NCBI GenBank assembly: GCA_963776165.1 | Contig: CAVZLI010000001.1 | Location: 130,658 to 194,657 of the forward strand | Direction of reading: 5' to 3' | DNA from: an uncultured Verrucomicrobiae bacterium | GTDB lineage: Bacteria > Verrucomicrobiota > Verrucomicrobiia > Chthoniobacterales > JACTMZ01 | Length of the DNA stretch: 64,000 nt | Part shown: positions 2,422-48,766 of the stretch, piece by piece | How positions within the stretch are numbered: position 1 is the first letter of the stretch | How the letters are laid out: each line of letters opens with the position of its first letter | Position numbers and translations under genes: made by a program | Notes under the pieces: model-generated | What the model was told of the DNA's origin: nothing | Databases searched by the model: none | What the model saw: the letters and a program-made list of their open reading frames with translations, nothing else

Positions 2422-2901
2422 TTACGATGGGGTCGGCGCCGCCTCCTTGTCGACGACGGAGAAAGTGACGTTGGCGATGCCCGCTTTGCCCACGGCCTCG
2501 AGCAGGCTTTTCATGGTGGCGTAGCGCACTTCTTTGTCCGCGCGGATGAGGACGCGGACCATGGGATTCTTCTGGATATGGTTTTGCAGGACGGGGATGA
2601 GGTCGCCGGGCGAGGGGTAGTCGATCTCGTTGACGCTGATGCCGACGGCGTTGTTGATGGGGTTGACGGCGAGGTTGACGATGATTTGGCCGGGGTTTTC
2701 CTTGGCGTCCTTGGCGTCTTTGGCCACGGGAAGGCGGATGTCCTTGTTCGACTGCAGCACTTCGGTCGAGCTGATCGACATGAAGAAGACGAGCAGAACG
2801 AGCAAAATGTCGATCATCGGCGCGATCTGGAATTCCGGGTCGGCTTCCGGTTCCGGCTCGCGGCGTTTCTTTTTGCCTCGCTTGGGGGCGGCGTCGGACA
2901 T
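2422..2901 (-). CDS. exbD: biopolymer transport protein ExbD/TolR (second paralog)
   Basis: 159-aa ORF with the motif FQIAPMIDILLVLLVFFM. It starts 4 nt after the exbB stop. Confidence 0.85.
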   Translation of the reverse strand: MSDAAPKRGKKKRREPEPEADPEFQIAPMIDILLVLLVFFMSISSTEVLQSNKDIRLPVAKDAKDAKENPGQIIVNLAVNPINNAVGISVNEIDYPSPGDLIPVLQNHIQKNPMVRVLIRADKEVRYATMKSLLEAVGKAGIANVTFSVVDKEAAPTPS

Positions 2902-2904
2902 GGA

Positions 2905-3702
2905 TCAAGATTGCCAGTCGAGCGTGGTTCCGCAACCGGGGCAGGGATTTTGTCCGGGCACGATGGCGGCTTGGCAGACGGGACAATTGGTCGTCAGTTG
3001 CATGGAGACTTTGTGGGAGACTTTCGACTCCTCGGCTCCGCCGCCGAGCCCGTCTCCGGCGCTGAAGTTCTCGCCGATGCGCATGCCTTTGACCTCGTCG
3101 AACGGGATGTCCTCAACGAGGTGGTTGAGTTCGCTGTCCGCGTAGACGGTGGCGTCGTTGATGCGGTTGCGGAAGTAGTAGTAGAAAATGAACGCGGGGA
3201 TGGCGATGAAGAGTCCGCTGGCCGTGGCGAGGAGCACTTCGCCGATGCTCATGGCGAGTTTGCGCGGGTCGGAGACGCCGGACTGACCAAGGACGGCGAA
3301 AGCACCCATCATGCCGATGACCGTGCCGAGCAGACCGATCATGGGCGAGATGACGCCGATGACCGAGAGGTAGCTGTTGCGGGTTTTGAAGACCTGTGAT
3401 TCGCGGATGCCCATTTCGATGAGGGCCGATTCGGTGGCGTCTTTACCGCGGCCGATGCGCTCGAGCGCCCCGCCGAGCACGGCGGCGATGTAGGTCTTGG
3501 CATTGGCTTGGCAGGTTTCCCACGCCTCTTGGAAGTTGCCGGCGCGGAGGGATTCGTCGAGGGCGCCGACGAGGGCTTTCGGGGCGAGGCTTTGGCGGCG
3601 GACCTGGAGGAAAAGCTGGATGATGAAAGTCACCATGACGATCGAGGTGGCCAGGATGGCGATCCAGATCATGATGATGAGCGGACCGCCGTGCAGGATC
3701 AT
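2905..3702 (-). CDS. exbB: MotA/TolQ/ExbB proton-channel protein with a C-terminal zinc-ribbon-like tail
   Basis: 265-aa ORF with TM segments and the conserved stretches ISPMIGLLGTVIGMMGAF and ATASGLFIAIPAFIFYYYF. The C-terminus reads CPVC-x10-CPGC. Confidence 0.85.
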   Translation of the reverse strand: MILHGGPLIIMIWIAILATSIVMVTFIIQLFLQVRRQSLAPKALVGALDESLRAGNFQEAWETCQANAKTYIAAVLGGALERIGRGKDATESALIEMGIRESQVFKTRNSYLSVIGVISPMIGLLGTVIGMMGAFAVLGQSGVSDPRKLAMSIGEVLLATASGLFIAIPAFIFYYYFRNRINDATVYADSELNHLVEDIPFDEVKGMRIGENFSAGDGLGGGAEESKVSHKVSMQLTTNCPVCQAAIVPGQNPCPGCGTTLDWQS

Positions 3703-10404: not shown

Positions 10405-11349
10405 TTATTTTTTCTGGTCCGCGTAGATCTCCATGATTTGGCGGAGGAGTTTGAGTCCGTCTTTTTTGGACCGCTGGAAGGAATTGCGTCCGATGATCGA
10501 CCCGAAGCCGCCGCCTTCGCGGATGGCGCGGATGGAATCGAGGAGTTTTTCGTCCGACTCGCTGGGTCCGCCGGAGAAGATGAGGATGCGTCGTCCGTCG
10601 AATGCGCATTGCACGCAGTGCCGCACGCGCTCAGCCGTCGTGGCGATGGGCACTTTCTCCGCCTCGTAGACTTTCTTGGCTGCCGCCTGCTCAAGGTGCG
10701 CGGTGGGCAGCTTGATCTTCACGATGTGTGCGCCGATCTGGCAGGCGATGTGCGCGGCGTAGCCGTCGACATCCATGGCTGTCTCGCCTTCCTTGCTCAG
10801 GCTGGTGCCGCGTGGGTAGGACCAGACGATGACGACGAGCCCGGCCTGTTTGGCTTCGTGGGCGAATTCGGCGAGCTGCTCATACATTTCGAGGCGCAGC
10901 GCCGAACCGGGGTAGATGGTGAAACCAACCGCGGAGCAACCGAGGCGCAGGGCGTCGTCAATCGTTCCGGTGCGGGCCGAGATGGGATCCTTTTCGTCGG
11001 AGGTGAGGTCTTTGCTGTTCAGCTTGAGAATGAGCGGCACATCCCCGGCGAATTCTCGGGCGCCGGCTTCGAGGAAGCCGAGCGGGGCGGCGTAGGCATT
11101 GCAGCCGGCTTCGATGGCCAGCTCGAAATGGTAGAGCGGGCTGTAGGCCGCCGGGTTCATGGCAAAGCTGCGGGCCGGGCCGTGCTCGAAGCCCTGGTCC
11201 ACGGGCAGGATGACCATTTTGCCGGTGCCCCCGAGGGTGCCGTGGTTGAGGAGGCGGGCCAGATTGGTCAGGGTGCCGGGATTGTCGGCTCCATACCACG
11301 AGAGGATTTCTTTGACGCGAGGGGTCATAATGCCGCTATTCCACGCCAT
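10405..11349 (-). CDS. class I fructose-bisphosphate aldolase (DhnA/FbaB type)
   Basis: 314-aa ORF with DhnA-family similarity ([18 protein letters not shown] lysine region). Confidence 0.7.
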
Positions 11350-11379: not shown

Positions 11380-11607
11380 TCAGAGCGTGTCATCGCTTTC
11401 CATGCGCGCCTCGTCGATCTGCGCGCCCGCGGCGGCGATATTGGAAACGGCCTGCTCGATTTCCTCGAGCGCGGCGGTTACCGGCGAAAGGTTCGAGCGG
11501 GGCAAATCGGCAAGGGCCAACCGGGCGCCTTCGAGGGCGTGACGGGCTTGCTGAAGGGATTTGTCGGCCGCGCGGAAGCGCTTGGCCCGCGGGTCGAGTG
11601 AGTTCAC
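11380..11607 (-). CDS. small helical hypothetical protein (75 aa), possibly coupled to the upstream Cys-rich peptide
   Basis: Part of ORF 11380..11631. The in-frame GTG at 11607 overlaps the TGA of the 44-aa peptide gene (GTGA). No recognisable family, so it could be a shadow ORF. Confidence 0.3.
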   Translation of the reverse strand: MNSLDPRAKRFRAADKSLQQARHALEGARLALADLPRSNLSPVTAALEEIEQAVSNIAAAGAQIDEARMESDDTL

Positions 11608-11738
11608 GGCGCGGTCTTTTCGCGCGGGCATTCACAGGTCGGCGAGCATTTCGCCCGGCAACCACACTCTTTGCACTGCGCCCACGCCGGAGTGGCGGCG
11701 AGGACGAGAAGGGCCAGCAGGAAGAATGGCAATTTCAT
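11604..11738 (-). CDS. small secreted cysteine-rich peptide (44 aa), metallothionein-like Cys pattern
   Basis: My own translation, below the ORF-track size cutoff: MKLPFFLLALLVLAATPAWAQCKECGCRAKCSPTCECPREKTAP. It has a Sec-type signal ending AWA. The 24-aa mature part carries 6 Cys in the pattern CxxCxC-x3-C-x3-CxC. Confidence 0.55.
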   Translation of the reverse strand: MKLPFFLLALLVLAATPAWAQCKECGCRAKCSPTCECPREKTAP

Positions 11739-11804
11739 GGAAAAATATTAATGCGGGGCCTTCCGGGTGGCAAACCAGCGTTCCGGGGAATTGCAGCGGG
11801 AACG

Positions 11805-12254
11805 TCAAAGTCGGCGTAGCGCATCCCCGACCGCGCCGGGAAGGGGGCGCGGGCCGTCGCCGCCGAGCTTCTCGTCGATTTCCTCAAGCCTGCGGATCAG
11901 GTCGATCACATCGCGGCGGGCATAAGGTCCGCCGGCCGCTGCGCAGAAGTGGGTGCGGCAGCCGAAGGGGCGGTCTTCGTAAATGAAGCAGCGCGAGGTG
12001 TGCGGATCTAGCAAGGGACAAGCGCCGTCGCTGCGCGAAGGGAGGGATTTTCTCCCTGTTGCTTTGAGGGCGCGGGCGGCGAGGAGGGCTTCGCCGCGGG
12101 TCAGGTAGGGGGTTTTGCCGGTGAGTTTGAAGTGACAGCACCGGGTGCGGAGTTCGCACTGGCGCTCGATGGGGCGGTCGGCGAGGTCGCGGTAGATTCG
12201 GCGGACTTCGTCGAGCGCGGCGGCCGGCGATGGTCGCCCTCCATGAGGACGCAT
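11805..12254 (-). CDS. YkgJ-family cysteine-cluster protein (putative Zn/Fe-chelating domain)
   Basis: ORF 11805..12299. The ATG at 12254 follows the slyD stop directly. Motifs CELRTRCC and GACPLLDPHTSRCFIYEDRPFGCRTHFC are typical of the family. Confidence 0.65.
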   Translation of the reverse strand: MRPHGGRPSPAAALDEVRRIYRDLADRPIERQCELRTRCCHFKLTGKTPYLTRGEALLAARALKATGRKSLPSRSDGACPLLDPHTSRCFIYEDRPFGCRTHFCAAAGGPYARRDVIDLIRRLEEIDEKLGGDGPRPLPGAVGDALRRL

Positions 12255-12256
12255 GC

Positions 12257-12787
12257 TCAGTGGCAGCCGCAGCCACCACCGCCGCTTCCGCCGCAGCAAC
12301 CGTCGTCGGAGTGGGAGTCGGCATGGTGGACGTGGCCGTGGGCGATTTCCTCCGGCGTGGCCGGACGGACGTCGCGGACGGTGACGTTGAAAGTGAGGGT
12401 TTCGCCGGCCAGGGGATGGTTGGCGTCTACGGTTACGGTGTCGCCCTCCACGGCAACCACCACGACATTGTCGGTGCCGTGCTGGCTGGTGGCGCGGAAG
12501 CGCATGCCGGGTTTGATTTCCGCGCCCGCCGGGAAGATGGAGCGGTCGACCTGTCCCATGCGTCGCTCGTCGCGGATTCCGTAGGCTTCGACCGGAGGAA
12601 CGACCACATCAAGCGTCTCGCCGGCGGTTTTGCCTTCGAGTGCTTTTTCCAGTCCGGGAATGATGCTGGCGTAGCCGTGCACGTAGGCCATGGGTGCGCC
12701 GCCTTGAGCGGAGCTGTCGAGGACTTCGGCGCGGCTGTTGCGGACTTCGTAGTCGAAGAGGACGGCGTGGTCTTTGGATATTTTCAT
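12257..12787 (-). CDS. slyD: FKBP-type peptidyl-prolyl isomerase SlyD with a His/Cys-rich metal-binding tail
   Basis: 176-aa ORF with an FKBP plus insert-in-flap layout. The C-terminus reads HGHVHHADSHSDDGCCGGSGGGGCGCH. Confidence 0.85.
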   Translation of the reverse strand: MKISKDHAVLFDYEVRNSRAEVLDSSAQGGAPMAYVHGYASIIPGLEKALEGKTAGETLDVVVPPVEAYGIRDERRMGQVDRSIFPAGAEIKPGMRFRATSQHGTDNVVVVAVEGDTVTVDANHPLAGETLTFNVTVRDVRPATPEEIAHGHVHHADSHSDDGCCGGSGGGGCGCH

Positions 12788-12796
12788 CTCTGCTTA

Positions 12797-13048
12797 TTAT
12801 GGAGTCCGATGCGGCGAACGCACGGAAGTTTTCCGCAGCACGTCGAAAGCATGGTCGGCCCCTTCGCGTTTGGCTTCGAGGACGATTTGCAAGAGGCGGC
12901 CGAGGTCACCGGCGGGCCAGCCTTTCTGCTCGAACCAGCAGAGGTATTCCGCCGGGATGTCGTAGAGTTTGCGTCCGGAAAATTTTCCGAAAGGCATCGT
13001 CCAAGTGCGCAATTTTTCCCAATCGGCAGCGGCTCGGGCGGCGTCCAT
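12797..13048 (-). CDS. DUF3820-like small protein
   Basis: Internal ATG at 13048 of ORF 12797..13147. The segment MPFGKFSGRKLYDIPAEYLCWF resembles the DUF3820 family. Confidence 0.5.
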   Translation of the reverse strand: MDAARAAADWEKLRTWTMPFGKFSGRKLYDIPAEYLCWFEQKGWPAGDLGRLLQIVLEAKREGADHAFDVLRKTSVRSPHRTP

Positions 13049-13118
13049 CGTTTGAGGGTAGCACGGTGGGGGGCTTTGGCGGTTGGCTTTTCGCTTGCGA
13101 TCGCGCTTAATTGCCGAC

Positions 13119-13991
13119 ATGCCCGAATTCGCCGAAGACCCTTCCAATAGTCCGCACGACGACCTGCATTACCGCGAATACAAGATCCTCCTCCGTCCGG
13201 AGCGCTTCGGCTCGCCGCGGGCCTTCAAGGATTTCTGGCAGGTGGTCAAACGGGTGGCCAAGCAGTTCGACGTGAAGTTGGAGGAGGCGGATGATGCGTT
13301 CGAGAACCAGGTGCGTGAGGTCCTGTTTTTCGACACGCCGGATTTCGATCTCTACAACAACCACTTCATCGTGCGGTTGCGCACGCTCTACCAAAGTGGT
13401 TGGCCGTCTGGAACGCCGGAGCTGACCGTCAAATTCCGCCATCCGGAATTCGAGCGCGCGGCGAGCGTCGACGTGCGGCCGGCTCTCGCCGGCGAGACCC
13501 GGATCAAATTCAAAGAGGAGCTGCTGCCGCGCCAGGACCGGTTGGGGGACATCCGTTCGATTTACTCGCACAATTCGGTGCTGGCCCTGCCGCGCGAGGC
13601 CATGAACTTCGCGTTGAAGAATGTGACGCACGCCTTCCCTGCATTCCGCGAGATCGAGGGGAAAGGTGACGCGCCGATCGAGTTGGTCAATGACATGGCG
13701 GTCGAGGAGTTGCAGGTCAACGTGGGGTTGGCTCATTTCGGGCACCATTACAACGGCAAGACGACGATTGCCGTCTGGCGCAGCAGGAAACTGGAGCAAC
13801 CGGTCTGCGGGGAATTCGCTTTCCAATGCAGATTCCGCAAGTCCGACGACATCCCTTCCGGCACCCTGGAAAAAGCGGCGGCTTTCCATAAAGAACTGCA
13901 AAAGACCGCGGAGGAGTGGATTATGCTCGGCACGACGAAAACGGCCTTGGTCTACGGTCTGGGCAACAAACCGGTGGTAAACCATGAGTGA
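13119..13991 (+). CDS. hypothetical protein, possibly a CYTH-like (triphosphate tunnel) fold
   Basis: ORF 13083..13991, with ATG at 13119. Alternating charged beta-strand motifs are present (REYKILL, IVRLR, LTVKFR, RIKFKEE, FAFQCRFR). The assignment is tentative. Confidence 0.4.
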   Translation: MPEFAEDPSNSPHDDLHYREYKILLRPERFGSPRAFKDFWQVVKRVAKQFDVKLEEADDAFENQVREVLFFDTPDFDLYNNHFIVRLRTLYQSGWPSGTPELTVKFRHPEFERAASVDVRPALAGETRIKFKEELLPRQDRLGDIRSIYSHNSVLALPREAMNFALKNVTHAFPAFREIEGKGDAPIELVNDMAVEELQVNVGLAHFGHHYNGKTTIAVWRSRKLEQPVCGEFAFQCRFRKSDDIPSGTLEKAAAFHKELQKTAEEWIMLGTTKTALVYGLGNKPVVNHE

Positions 13992-14553
13992 CGGCACCGA
14001 GGCGCCCGCCAAGGTTTCGCTGGGCAAGATCTTCGCGGCCTTCGCGCTCATCGGGGTGACGAGCTTCGGCGGCGGCATTGTTGCTTATCTGCGTCATGCG
14101 CTGGTGGAAAAGGAAAAGTGGCTCGATGCGGACGAGTTCATGGGCGCCTTGGAGATCGCGCAGACTTTGCCGGGACTGAACTCGACCAACATGAGCGTCA
14201 TTGTCGGTCGCAAACTGCGGGGGGCGATTGGTTCGGTCGTCGCGGTGGTCGGCATGATCCTGCCGGGCGCGGTCATCCTCACCGGTCTAGGGTTCGCTTA
14301 TGTCGCATTGCGGCATGATCCGAAAGTGGCTGTCATTCTCACCGGCGTGGCCGCGGCAGCTGTCGGGCTGCTTCTGCAGGTGACGCTGAAGATCGGCTGG
14401 AAGCAATTGATCCGTCCGAAGGACCTCCTTTTTGTCGTCATTGTTTTCGTCCTCGTCGGCATTTTCCACATGTCCCTGCTCGTCACGCTGGTGACGCTCG
14501 CGCCCTTGGCCATCTGGATGAACCGTCCGGCTAAAGAGAAGGAGGCCGCGTGA
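13984..14553 (+). CDS. chromate transporter family protein (half-size, first)
   Basis: 189-aa ORF with the CHR-family motif FALIGVTSFGGGIVAYL. It overlaps the upstream gene by 8 nt. Confidence 0.8.
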   Translation: MSDGTEAPAKVSLGKIFAAFALIGVTSFGGGIVAYLRHALVEKEKWLDADEFMGALEIAQTLPGLNSTNMSVIVGRKLRGAIGSVVAVVGMILPGAVILTGLGFAYVALRHDPKVAVILTGVAAAAVGLLLQVTLKIGWKQLIRPKDLLFVVIVFVLVGIFHMSLLVTLVTLAPLAIWMNRPAKEKEAA

Positions 14554-15095
14554 GCAAGATCGTCGAACTGATCAACGTCTTCGCGCTCCTTTCGCTCCTG
14601 GCGGTGGGGGGCGGCACGGCGGTGCTGCCGCAGATGAAGCACGACACGGTCGACACGCACCACTGGGTGACCGACACACAGTTCACCGAAATCTACAGCC
14701 TCGGCCAGTTGGCGCCGGGTCCGAACATGACGTGCGTCATGCTCATCGGCTACGAGGTTTCAGGGTTTGCCGGACTGGTTGCCGTGCTCGTGGCCTTCTT
14801 CTTTCCGGCCTGCCTGCTGTGTTATTTCGTCAGCAAAATCTGGGATGCGGCCGCGGGTTCGCCGTGGCGCGATGCGGTGCAGCGGGGGATGGCGCCCATT
14901 GTCATCGGGCTCATGCTGGCCGGCTGCTATGCGCTGGGCAAAACGGCCAGCTACAATCCGTCGCGGGATTGGGAATTCAACCTGCTCACCTTGGCCATCG
15001 GTGCCGCGGTCGTCCTTCTCCTGACTGTCACGCGGATCAACCCCGCCTTGACCATTCTCGGCGGCGGTGTGGCGGGGTATTTTTTGCTGGGCTGA
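14550..15095 (+). CDS. chromate transporter family protein (half-size, second)
   Basis: 181-aa ORF with the motifs LLAVGGGTAVLPQM and LAPGPN. ATGA-type overlap with the first half. Confidence 0.8.
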   Translation: MSKIVELINVFALLSLLAVGGGTAVLPQMKHDTVDTHHWVTDTQFTEIYSLGQLAPGPNMTCVMLIGYEVSGFAGLVAVLVAFFFPACLLCYFVSKIWDAAAGSPWRDAVQRGMAPIVIGLMLAGCYALGKTASYNPSRDWEFNLLTLAIGAAVVLLLTVTRINPALTILGGGVAGYFLLG

Positions 15096-47965: not shown

Positions 47966-48766
47966 TCAGGAGTTTCCCACTTTGAGGGGGCGCCCGGTTT
48001 TGCCGCGCAGGACCATGAGGATTTCCGCGAGGACGCTGACGGCGATTTCGGCCGGGGAGTCCGAACCGATGTCGAGGCCAAGGGGGGCGTAGACGGTGGC
48101 GAGTTGCTCGGGGGTGATGCCTTCGGCTTTGAGCTGATCGTAAACCTGGATGACCTTGCGGCGGCTGCCGATCATGCCGATGTAGCCCATGCCGCCATGC
48201 CGCAGTGCGGCGGCGAGGGCTTCGCGGTCGATGTCGTAGTGGCGGCTGACGATGACGAGAGCGTCGTTGCGGTCCCAGTCATGGGCGGAGATGTAACCCG
48301 GCGCGGGATCGGTAAGGCGGACGTGCGCGGCTTCACATTTGGCGAGAATATCGTCCCGGTCTTCGAGGGCGGTGACGTGGAAGCCGCATTCGCTGGCCAG
48401 TTTTGCGATGGCCTGCGCGCAGTGTCCGCCGCCGATGATGAGGAGGCGGTGGGCCGGGAGTTCCGGTTCAATGAAGACCGTGACTTCGCCCCCACAGATG
48501 GCGCCGAAGGAATCGGGCTGATCCTCGCGGAGGGGCCAGGTTTCGAGGAGCGGCTCCCGGCGGGCGAGGCAGTCGAGGGCTTGGGCGATGACGAGCGATT
48601 CGAATTTGCCGCCGCCGACCGTGCCGGAAATCGAGCCGTCCGCATAGACGATCATTTTGGCGCCGGCGTGGCGCGGCACGGAACCTTTGGTCGCTGCCAC
48701 GGTGGCGAGGGCGCAGGGACGCCCGGCGCGCCGGGCGGCAAGCAACTCTTCGAGGATGACGCTCAT
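47966..48766 (-). CDS. XdhC/CoxI-family accessory protein
   Basis: ATG at 48766 gives MSVILEELLAARRAGRPCALATVAATKGSVPR. A Rossmann-like region (LLIIGGGHCAQA) is present. Confidence 0.7.
   Translation of the reverse strand: MSVILEELLAARRAGRPCALATVAATKGSVPRHAGAKMIVYADGSISGTVGGGKFESLVIAQALDCLARREPLLETWPLREDQPDSFGAICGGEVTVFIEPELPAHRLLIIGGGHCAQAIAKLASECGFHVTALEDRDDILAKCEAAHVRLTDPAPGYISAHDWDRNDALVIVSRHYDIDREALAAALRHGGMGYIGMIGSRRKVIQVYDQLKAEGITPEQLATVYAPLGLDIGSDSPAEIAVSVLAEILMVLRGKTGRPLKVGNS

Follow-up and report, generated by a model that had tools for sequence, protein, structure and literature searches.

A predicted secreted six-cysteine peptide heads a conserved, overlapping gene pair in the Chthoniobacterales

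Metallothioneins are tiny proteins without aromatic residues in which about 25% of the residues are cysteines, arranged in CxC and CxxC motifs; in the classical members, lysines beside the cysteines are conserved. Examples include the copper metallothionein of the fungus Neurospora, of ~25 amino acids (aa), and the bacterial MymT and SmtA. Metallothioneins fold only upon metal binding, those of bacteria are described as cytosolic, and MymT was at first a non-annotated small open reading frame (ORF) (PMC7558416). Exported cysteine-based copper binders are also known. The storage protein Csp1 is exported by the Tat pathway and holds Cu(I) through many cysteine thiolates (PMC7558416), and it is a pre-folded four-helix-bundle tetramer; the bufferins (DUF2282, BUF_6/12Cys) are copper-binding peptides with a Sec signal that act in the periplasm and are defined by a precursor gene adjoining genes for an MNIO (DUF692, BufB) and a DUF2063 protein (BufC) (PMC11626156). 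A Sec pre-peptide with six cysteines in fewer than 20 residues is also found in the heat-stable enterotoxin STa and similar peptides, and in SecM-SecA, VemP-SecDF2 and MifM-YidC2 a short exported or membrane-targeted upstream ORF controls a downstream gene. Here we describe a gene pair in a 64,000-nt stretch of DNA (the window) from an uncultured Verrucomicrobiae bacterium (GenBank assembly GCA_963776165.1, contig CAVZLI010000001.1, positions 130,658 to 194,657). The first gene specifies a 44-aa pre-peptide with six cysteines and the second, orf75, a 75-aa helical protein. The original prediction, made from the letters of the window, was of a secreted peptide whose ORF is translationally coupled to orf75. 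We are highly confident that, taken together, the gene is real, its product is exported and the two genes form a coupled bicistron.

Translation of the reverse strand confirmed the position, sequence and cysteine pattern that had been proposed (Table 1): six cysteines, spaced C-x2-C-x-C-x3-C-x3-C-x-C, lie within the 24 residues that follow an AWA motif. The first related genomes were retrieved through the adjoining aldolase gene. In three Chthoniobacterales metagenome-assembled genomes (MAGs; L001, L003 and L004), an orthologous small ORF occupies the same position, with six cysteines at the same spacing and a 4-nt stop/start overlap; other relatives, with an aldolase 90-99% identical, have a different gene upstream and no peptide. 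A metagenome scan with an alignment of orf75 gave 37 more loci. The peptide ORF lies directly upstream of orf75 in 30 retrieved loci and is absent from 13 distinct loci, while two retrieved loci were cut too short to be scored. All told, the ORF stands at the equivalent place in about 36 related Chthoniobacterales loci, with cysteine spacing and synteny both kept, and about 60 distinct peptide sequences were seen.

Selection acts on the encoded residues. Across 24 orthologues, the 17-codon cysteine core has a proportion of synonymous differences (pS) of 0.69 and of non-synonymous differences (pN) of 0.145, giving a non-synonymous to synonymous ratio (dN/dS) of 0.09; in the signal region the ratio is 0.41. 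Stop codons interrupt the +1 frame in all 24 orthologues, the +2 frame in 4 and each of the three opposite-strand frames in 11-12. The conservation and the dN/dS rule out a chance ORF in GC-rich DNA, and together with a conserved promoter (below) they bear out the claim of a real gene.

The family is a closed one. A word-indexed search of 5.8 billion proteins with the single peptide gave no match. When an alignment of 24 sequences from syntenic loci was used instead, 38 called proteins were recovered, all at E <= 2e-12, and no others appeared up to E = 10; each is either unnamed or a 'hypothetical protein', and all are without a Pfam domain. The description of the gene as unannotated thus holds for the ORF track of the window, but not for some public MAG records, in which the gene is called under that uninformative name. 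A full hidden Markov model (HMM) scan of 1.84 billion representative proteins returned seven clusters, each of them this peptide family, so there is no wider superfamily; as far as these sources show, the family is confined to the Chthoniobacterales. The peptide, orf75 and the region had no meaningful match in Pfam, NCBIfam, PADLOC, PDB sequences or Rfam, in keeping with the first impression of an unrecognised family. The lone NCBIfam match of the peptide, to TIGR04200 (E = 0.022, 14.5 bits against a cut-off of 40), is driven by the signal peptide. The literature on periplasmic or secreted bacterial metallothioneins, on Chthoniobacter cysteine-rich peptides and on leaderless mRNAs in Verrucomicrobia held nothing on this family. 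By these comparisons, the peptide belongs to no described family and is the product of a new, lineage-restricted one.

The N-terminal part of the pre-peptide is organized as a Sec signal: a lysine n-region precedes a hydrophobic stretch and an AxA site. The family's pre-peptides are 44-50 aa long and begin with MK followed by 12-15 hydrophobic residues. The proposed cleavage site is upheld by 41 of 41 members, which all have Ala at -1 and Ala or Val at -3; the residue at +1, ahead of the first cysteine, is Gln in 35 of the 41 and Ser, Ala, Lys or Asn in the others. Judged by these rules (charged n-region, h-region and AxA), the family members are predicted secretory pre-peptides of the Sec/signal peptidase I (SPase I) type with mature parts of 24-26 residues. 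The consensus is MKxxLxLLGLLxLAxxPAQA/QCKDCGCKxKCSPxCxCxHDEKPKAQ, where the slash marks the predicted cut. Other fates for the N-terminus and the cysteines were considered and rejected. A lipoprotein processed by SPase II would need the lipobox [LVI][ASTVI][GAS]C, which is missing, the residue three before the first cysteine not being Leu, Val or Ile; there is no twin-arginine motif, as a Tat substrate would have; and there is no CxxCH for c-type haem attachment.

The mature part is dominated by a core of six cysteines within 17 residues, C-K-D/E-C-G-C-K/R-x-K-C-x3-C-x-C. Invariant in the family alignment are the Ala at -1, Cys22, Cys25, Cys27, Cys31, Cys37 and Gly26 (of CGC); Cys35, Lys23 and Lys30 are nearly so. 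Most members also have a His two residues past the last cysteine. Natural variants with five cysteines exist. In one, the fifth cysteine is replaced by Tyr (P0129, L104 at 2864-3004, and L105; 14 contigs from four sources), in a gene that is otherwise intact and coupled; in a second, independent loss, the second cysteine is replaced by Arg (P0141). There is no hydrophobic core in the mature peptide. An AlphaFold2 model built with the family alignment (mean predicted local distance difference test score, pLDDT, 74) shows the signal as a helix, with residues 3-25 forming a single one, and the cysteine core as coil (pLDDT ~55-78); a disulfide topology could not be read from it.

Upstream of the peptide ORF is a putative sigma-70-type promoter (Table 1). 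A consensus scan of this region found two overlapping promoter sites, against 0.1 expected from shuffled sequences. In 26 distinct orthologous loci, a TTGCCA/TAnnnT pair keeps its distance to the start codon, and the sequence between the two elements varies. With an unconserved spacer of 17 nt, the promoter is not of the MerR type. Across the same 26 loci, 6-8 nt separate the end of the -10 hexamer from the peptide start codon, which predicts a 5' untranslated region of 0-2 nt. With the -10 box so close there is no space for a Shine-Dalgarno (SD) sequence, and the peptide mRNA is therefore probably leaderless or nearly so. The start codon is GTG in five orthologues and possibly ATA in one, which is unusual for leaderless initiation.

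The second gene begins within the stop codon of the first. The mechanical ORF list starts orf75 at an upstream ATG (11631), giving 83 aa, but an alignment of 33 homologues places the conserved start at a GTG or ATG at 11607, with a product beginning MNSLDPRAK... The overlap of stop and start (GTGA or ATGA), noted in the original prediction for this one locus, is found in every peptide-bearing locus, and orf75 has no SD-like motif ahead of it. Its start codon varies with the company it keeps: it is GTG in 25 of 27 distinct peptide-bearing loci and ATG in all 14 peptide-less ones (Fisher p = 3e-9, without correction for phylogeny). This split by peptide presence argues that translational coupling of orf75 to the peptide ORF is functional. 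From the promoter, the missing SD motif, the start-codon split and the decayed gene at L095 (below) together, we infer translation of the peptide ORF, whose ribosomes would be passed on to make orf75.

The orf75 protein is itself conserved. Its homologues form 113 clusters, 55-99% identical, and no significant Pfam family was found in any of them. The helical nature suggested for it at the outset is borne out by AlphaFold2, which gives a two-helix hairpin (helices 6-33 and 42-74; pLDDT 88); a Foldseek comparison with the PDB found nothing significant (best E-value 0.6). Its N-terminal 22 residues are almost invariant, with a dN/dS of 0.06 in codons 2-22 and 0.25 in the remainder, and it lacks a signal peptide as well as any conserved Cys or His. 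Many of the database entries (P0001-P0113) are 86-101 aa long, not 75, since gene callers placed the start too far upstream, reading across the peptide gene in a different frame; the peptide is thereby hidden in the annotations.

Comparison of the two distributions shows that orf75 is the older and more widespread element of the pair. Retrieval from the peptide side gave an overlapping orf75 downstream in five of five loci, in one of which the gene caller had missed orf75. Among the loci seen there was no peptide gene without orf75, and conversely about a third of orf75 genes have no peptide. The peptide-less loci are scattered over a neighbour-joining tree of orf75 that is built on 75 residues only and poorly resolved; taken at face value, this tree would mean that the peptide was lost repeatedly and that the GTG/ATG switch occurred several times. 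A decayed peptide gene is present at L095 (1243-1390), where a promoter-like TAATTT-6-ATG and a start MKIIFLS... are kept and the cysteine core is gone; the remnant ORF has 30 codons (MKIIFLSPLDRH...) and its stop still overlaps the orf75 start (TGATG). Several peptide-less loci (e.g. L106 and L119) have a TAnnnT box a few nt ahead of the orf75 ATG, which suggests that orf75 may there be a leaderless first cistron. The probably leaderless promoter, the GTG/ATG dichotomy and the greater age of orf75 with repeated peptide loss were not part of the original prediction.

Table 1. Positions of the peptide/orf75 unit and of other genes in the window
Feature	Positions	Strand	Description
Peptide ORF	11604..11738	-	MKLPFFLLALLVLAATPAWAQCKECGCRAKCSPTCECPREKTAP, 44 aa, ATG start
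Signal peptide, codons 1-20	11679..11738	-	MKLPFFLLALLVLAATPAWA; predicted SPase I cut after AWA
Mature peptide, codons 21-44	11607..11678	-	QCKECGCRAKCSPTCECPREKTAP; Cys6 core C-x2-C-G-C-x3-C-x3-C-x-C
Sigma-70-type promoter (putative), TTGCCA-17 nt-TAATAT	11745..11773	-	-10 hexamer ends 6 nt ahead of ATG
GTGA overlap, peptide TGA/orf75 GTG	11604..11607	-	Proposed coupling site
orf75, second cistron	11380..11607	-	Conserved 75-aa cytoplasmic protein, MNSLDPRAKRFRAADKSLQQAR...
Class I aldolase (DeoC/LacD family)	10405..11349	-	
YkgJ-type CxxCxxCC protein	11805..12299		Longest reading
SlyD-like FKBP peptidyl-prolyl isomerase	12257..12787	-	
QSregVF_b-domain protein	12797..13147	-	
302-aa ORF	13083..13991	+	No Pfam match
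Split ChrA pair (PF02417)	13984..14553 and 14550..15095	+	Two half-size genes, 4-nt overlap
XdhC-like gene	~47978..48655	-	

The pair is found in two gene orders. In type A, XdhC is followed by the peptide gene, orf75, a gene for an S26 signal peptidase and, on the opposite strand, Hydrolase_3. In type B, XdhC is followed by the peptide gene (in some loci), orf75, an aldolase gene (in some loci) and a 6-phosphogluconate-dehydrogenase-like gene (gnd), then SnoaL-like and lipid A acyltransferase-like genes on the opposite strand. The window is of type B, but genes for a YkgJ-type CxxCxxCC protein and a SlyD-like FKBP lie upstream in place of XdhC. The window's XdhC-like gene is about 36 kb from the pair; since XdhC is immediately upstream in most relatives, this points to a rearrangement in the window's lineage. 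A strict functional link of the pair to the YkgJ and SlyD-like genes was rejected, since the closest relatives of the window are the only ones to share that arrangement.

The S26 signal peptidase gene (373 aa) lies 3' of orf75 in every type A locus (L081, L090-L105, L115, L118, L120, L123-L125 and L127), and all the evaluable loci that have it carry the peptide. At least 19 loci with the peptide have it downstream, against none of the evaluable peptide-less loci. The window and at least nine other peptide-bearing loci do not have it there, and a strict link between peptide and peptidase was therefore rejected; the association may reflect shared ancestry or a functional link between an ORF with a signal peptide and a signal peptidase.

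Some further observations concern the genes around the pair in the window. The SlyD-like protein has a His/Cys-rich C-terminal tail, HGHVHHADSHSDDGCCGGSGGGGCGCH, and the stop codon of its gene falls within the YkgJ-type ORF that comes next, when that ORF is read at its longest. The true start of the YkgJ-type ORF is probably further downstream, since homology to L001 begins at residue 16. For the aldolase, the internal Met8 (MTPRVKE..., near 11328) is the probable start, homology beginning exactly there in relatives with a different upstream gene. Beyond the SlyD-like gene, the QSregVF_b-domain gene adjoins the 302-aa ORF, and two chromate-transporter genes follow (Table 1).

As to function, we tentatively favour a metallothionein-like periplasmic peptide that would bind metal through its thiolates, and give this reading rather less than an even chance. 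The composition is that of a metallothionein: low mass, six cysteines in 24 residues (25%) in one CxxC and two CxC motifs, and no Phe, Trp or Tyr. Lys23 and Lys30 stand beside cysteines, as in the classical members, and a His after the last cysteine is frequent. AlphaFold2 finds no autonomous fold for the core, as with proteins that fold on metal binding. Two separate losses of a single cysteine are also consistent with this reading, because a thiolate cluster would tolerate such a loss better than three obligatory disulfides. Csp1 and the bufferins give a precedent for binding copper by cysteines after export. As a candidate metal binder, the peptide differs from bacterial metallothioneins in its cleavable Sec-type signal and in the lack of HMM-level homology and of a metal-regulated context. 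Compared with Csp1, to which it is not homologous, it is a 24-residue peptide with a Sec rather than a Tat signal.

Whatever the function, there is strong support for a two-gene unit transcribed from the conserved sigma-70-type promoter. The pre-peptide made from the first cistron would be cut after A/V-x-A, leaving outside the cytoplasm a peptide 24-26 residues long. Ribosomes ending at the peptide TGA would re-initiate on the overlapping orf75 GTG, a weak start that orf75 uses only behind the peptide ORF. Under the metal-binding reading, the six thiolates of the released peptide, with the conserved lysines alongside, could enclose a few soft metal ions as a cluster, most plausibly of Cu(I) or Zn(II)/Cd(II), and the peptide would buffer the metal or hand it over. 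The hairpin protein would be the product of an older housekeeping gene in front of which the peptide gene stands, such that translation of the peptide drives synthesis of the hairpin. In its full form, with an unmodified Sec-exported Cys6 metallothionein made from a leaderless bicistronic mRNA, its translation being the obligatory ribosome entry for orf75 so that the products are co-made, we regard the scheme as possible but doubtful.

Several points weigh against metal binding. Searches of Pfam and NCBIfam gave no metallothionein model at E <= 1, and a profile search of PDB sequences found nothing relevant. No gene for metal homeostasis or resistance, no metal sensor and no conserved operator accompanies the pair, and none of the conserved neighbours (XdhC, S26 signal peptidase, aldolase and gnd) is indicative of metals. 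The window's own peptide lacks the His that follows the last cysteine in most members. The periplasm is usually oxidising, which favours disulfides, and the invariance of the Gly in CGC suggests a site sterically constrained by a fixed fold, not a plastic one for metal. Repeated loss of the peptide would make its role a dispensable one.

Some of these points suit the strongest competing explanation, in which periplasmic oxidoreductases would pair the six cysteines after export to give a three-disulfide mini-protein. Such a product would be a rigid, protease-resistant, cationic knot of 17 residues, and its role could lie in signalling, in antimicrobial or toxic action, or in binding or inhibiting an envelope protein. 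Sec export delivers the peptide to an oxidising compartment; its cysteines are even in number, strictly conserved and fixed in spacing; a glycine such as that of CGC is expected in a tight turn; and no metal genes lie near the pair. The Gln found at the N-terminus of 35 of 41 mature peptides could cyclise to pyroglutamate, presumably as in stable secreted peptides. Yet two lineages have an odd number of cysteines, AlphaFold2 gives no compact fold, and the nearly invariant lysine beside a cysteine has no obvious role in a cystine knot. The neighbourhoods examined hold no dedicated exporter, receptor or immunity gene, and the sole constant partner, orf75, is cytoplasmic and also present where the peptide is not. 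STa and similar three-disulfide secreted peptides have a different cysteine spacing; our peptide lacks a pro-region and has no Pfam match, and its hosts are free-living freshwater and soil Verrucomicrobia. On balance, we consider a disulfide knot a serious contender that is nonetheless unlikely. The original prediction had offered both metal binding and a disulfide-knotted signal or toxin; computation does not separate the two, and both remain candidates.

A third explanation puts the weight on orf75. The upstream ORF would then be mainly an expression device that loads ribosomes onto a leaderless mRNA, perhaps targets that mRNA to the membrane by way of the encoded signal peptide, and feeds the ribosomes to orf75. 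It includes a variant in which the peptide ORF monitors secretion on behalf of the S26 peptidase gene, by analogy with SecM-SecA, VemP-SecDF2 and MifM-YidC2. The lack of an SD ahead of orf75 and its GTG start only where the peptide ORF is present are consistent with this, as is the locus L095, which has kept the promoter, the start codon and an overlapping decayed ORF after losing the cysteine core. The secretion-monitor variant could also draw on the S26 gene standing in the same gene row at many peptide loci. A purely regulatory ORF, however, would not hold six Cys, a Gly and two Lys at a dN/dS of 0.09. The gene coupled directly to the peptide is orf75, not S26, which is missing downstream in the window and in at least nine other peptide-bearing loci; its association with the peptide tracks the two gene orders and may be shared ancestry only. 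The peptide also has no known arrest motif, although arrest motifs are not recognisable from sequence. We therefore think it improbable that the ORF is mainly such a device.

Still less probable is a small membrane protein that is never cleaved, in which the N-terminus would be an anchor and the cysteine-rich periplasmic tail would modulate an envelope sensor or enzyme by redox chemistry, in the manner of MgrB. The single helix modelled for residues 3-25 would fit such an anchor, and the size and topology resemble those of small regulatory membrane proteins with periplasmic cysteines. The A/V-x-A directly ahead of the core in 41 of 41 members argues for cleavage, however, and the hydrophobic core is short (about 12-15 residues).

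Least probable of all, and disfavoured although it was among the original suggestions, is a peptide made on the ribosome and modified after translation (RiPP) whose Sec signal doubles as a leader and whose cysteines are modified by an MNIO, as in bufferins, or by a radical SAM enzyme, as in SCIFF ranthipeptides: SCIFF peptides are of similar size and cysteine count, and bufferins are cysteine-containing RiPPs with a Sec signal and, in one family, six conserved cysteines, but they come from DUF2282 precursors of 80-120 aa, far longer than this peptide (PMC11626156), and no MNIO (DUF692, BufB), DUF2063 (BufC), radical SAM or other maturase gene was found in any neighbourhood whose genes were examined, in either gene order, or in the window flanks, where the partner is instead a helical hairpin, nor did Pfam or NCBIfam give a match to DUF2282, to SCIFF or another RiPP model or to a BUF_6/12Cys signature, the last being a weaker test as a dedicated model was not confirmed in these libraries.

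At the level of the gene, we regard the result as solid. Support for the architecture is unusually good, and the family is new, cleanly delimited and confined to one order, bearing every mark by which a gene is recognised: a promoter, a signal peptide, purifying selection and coupling to a downstream gene. Annotation of small secreted proteins is badly deficient, and here gene callers often miss the peptide or extend orf75 across its gene. The relation between the GTG/ATG start of orf75 and the presence of the peptide offers a natural experiment on translational coupling and leaderless initiation, and one that would have been repeated independently if, as the tree suggests, the peptide was lost several times. 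A disulfide knot, if that is what the peptide forms, would be a rare case of a ribosomal mini-peptide with three disulfides in a diderm bacterium that is free-living. Metal binding, if borne out, would bring metallothionein-type chemistry into the bacterial periplasm with no modifying enzyme involved.

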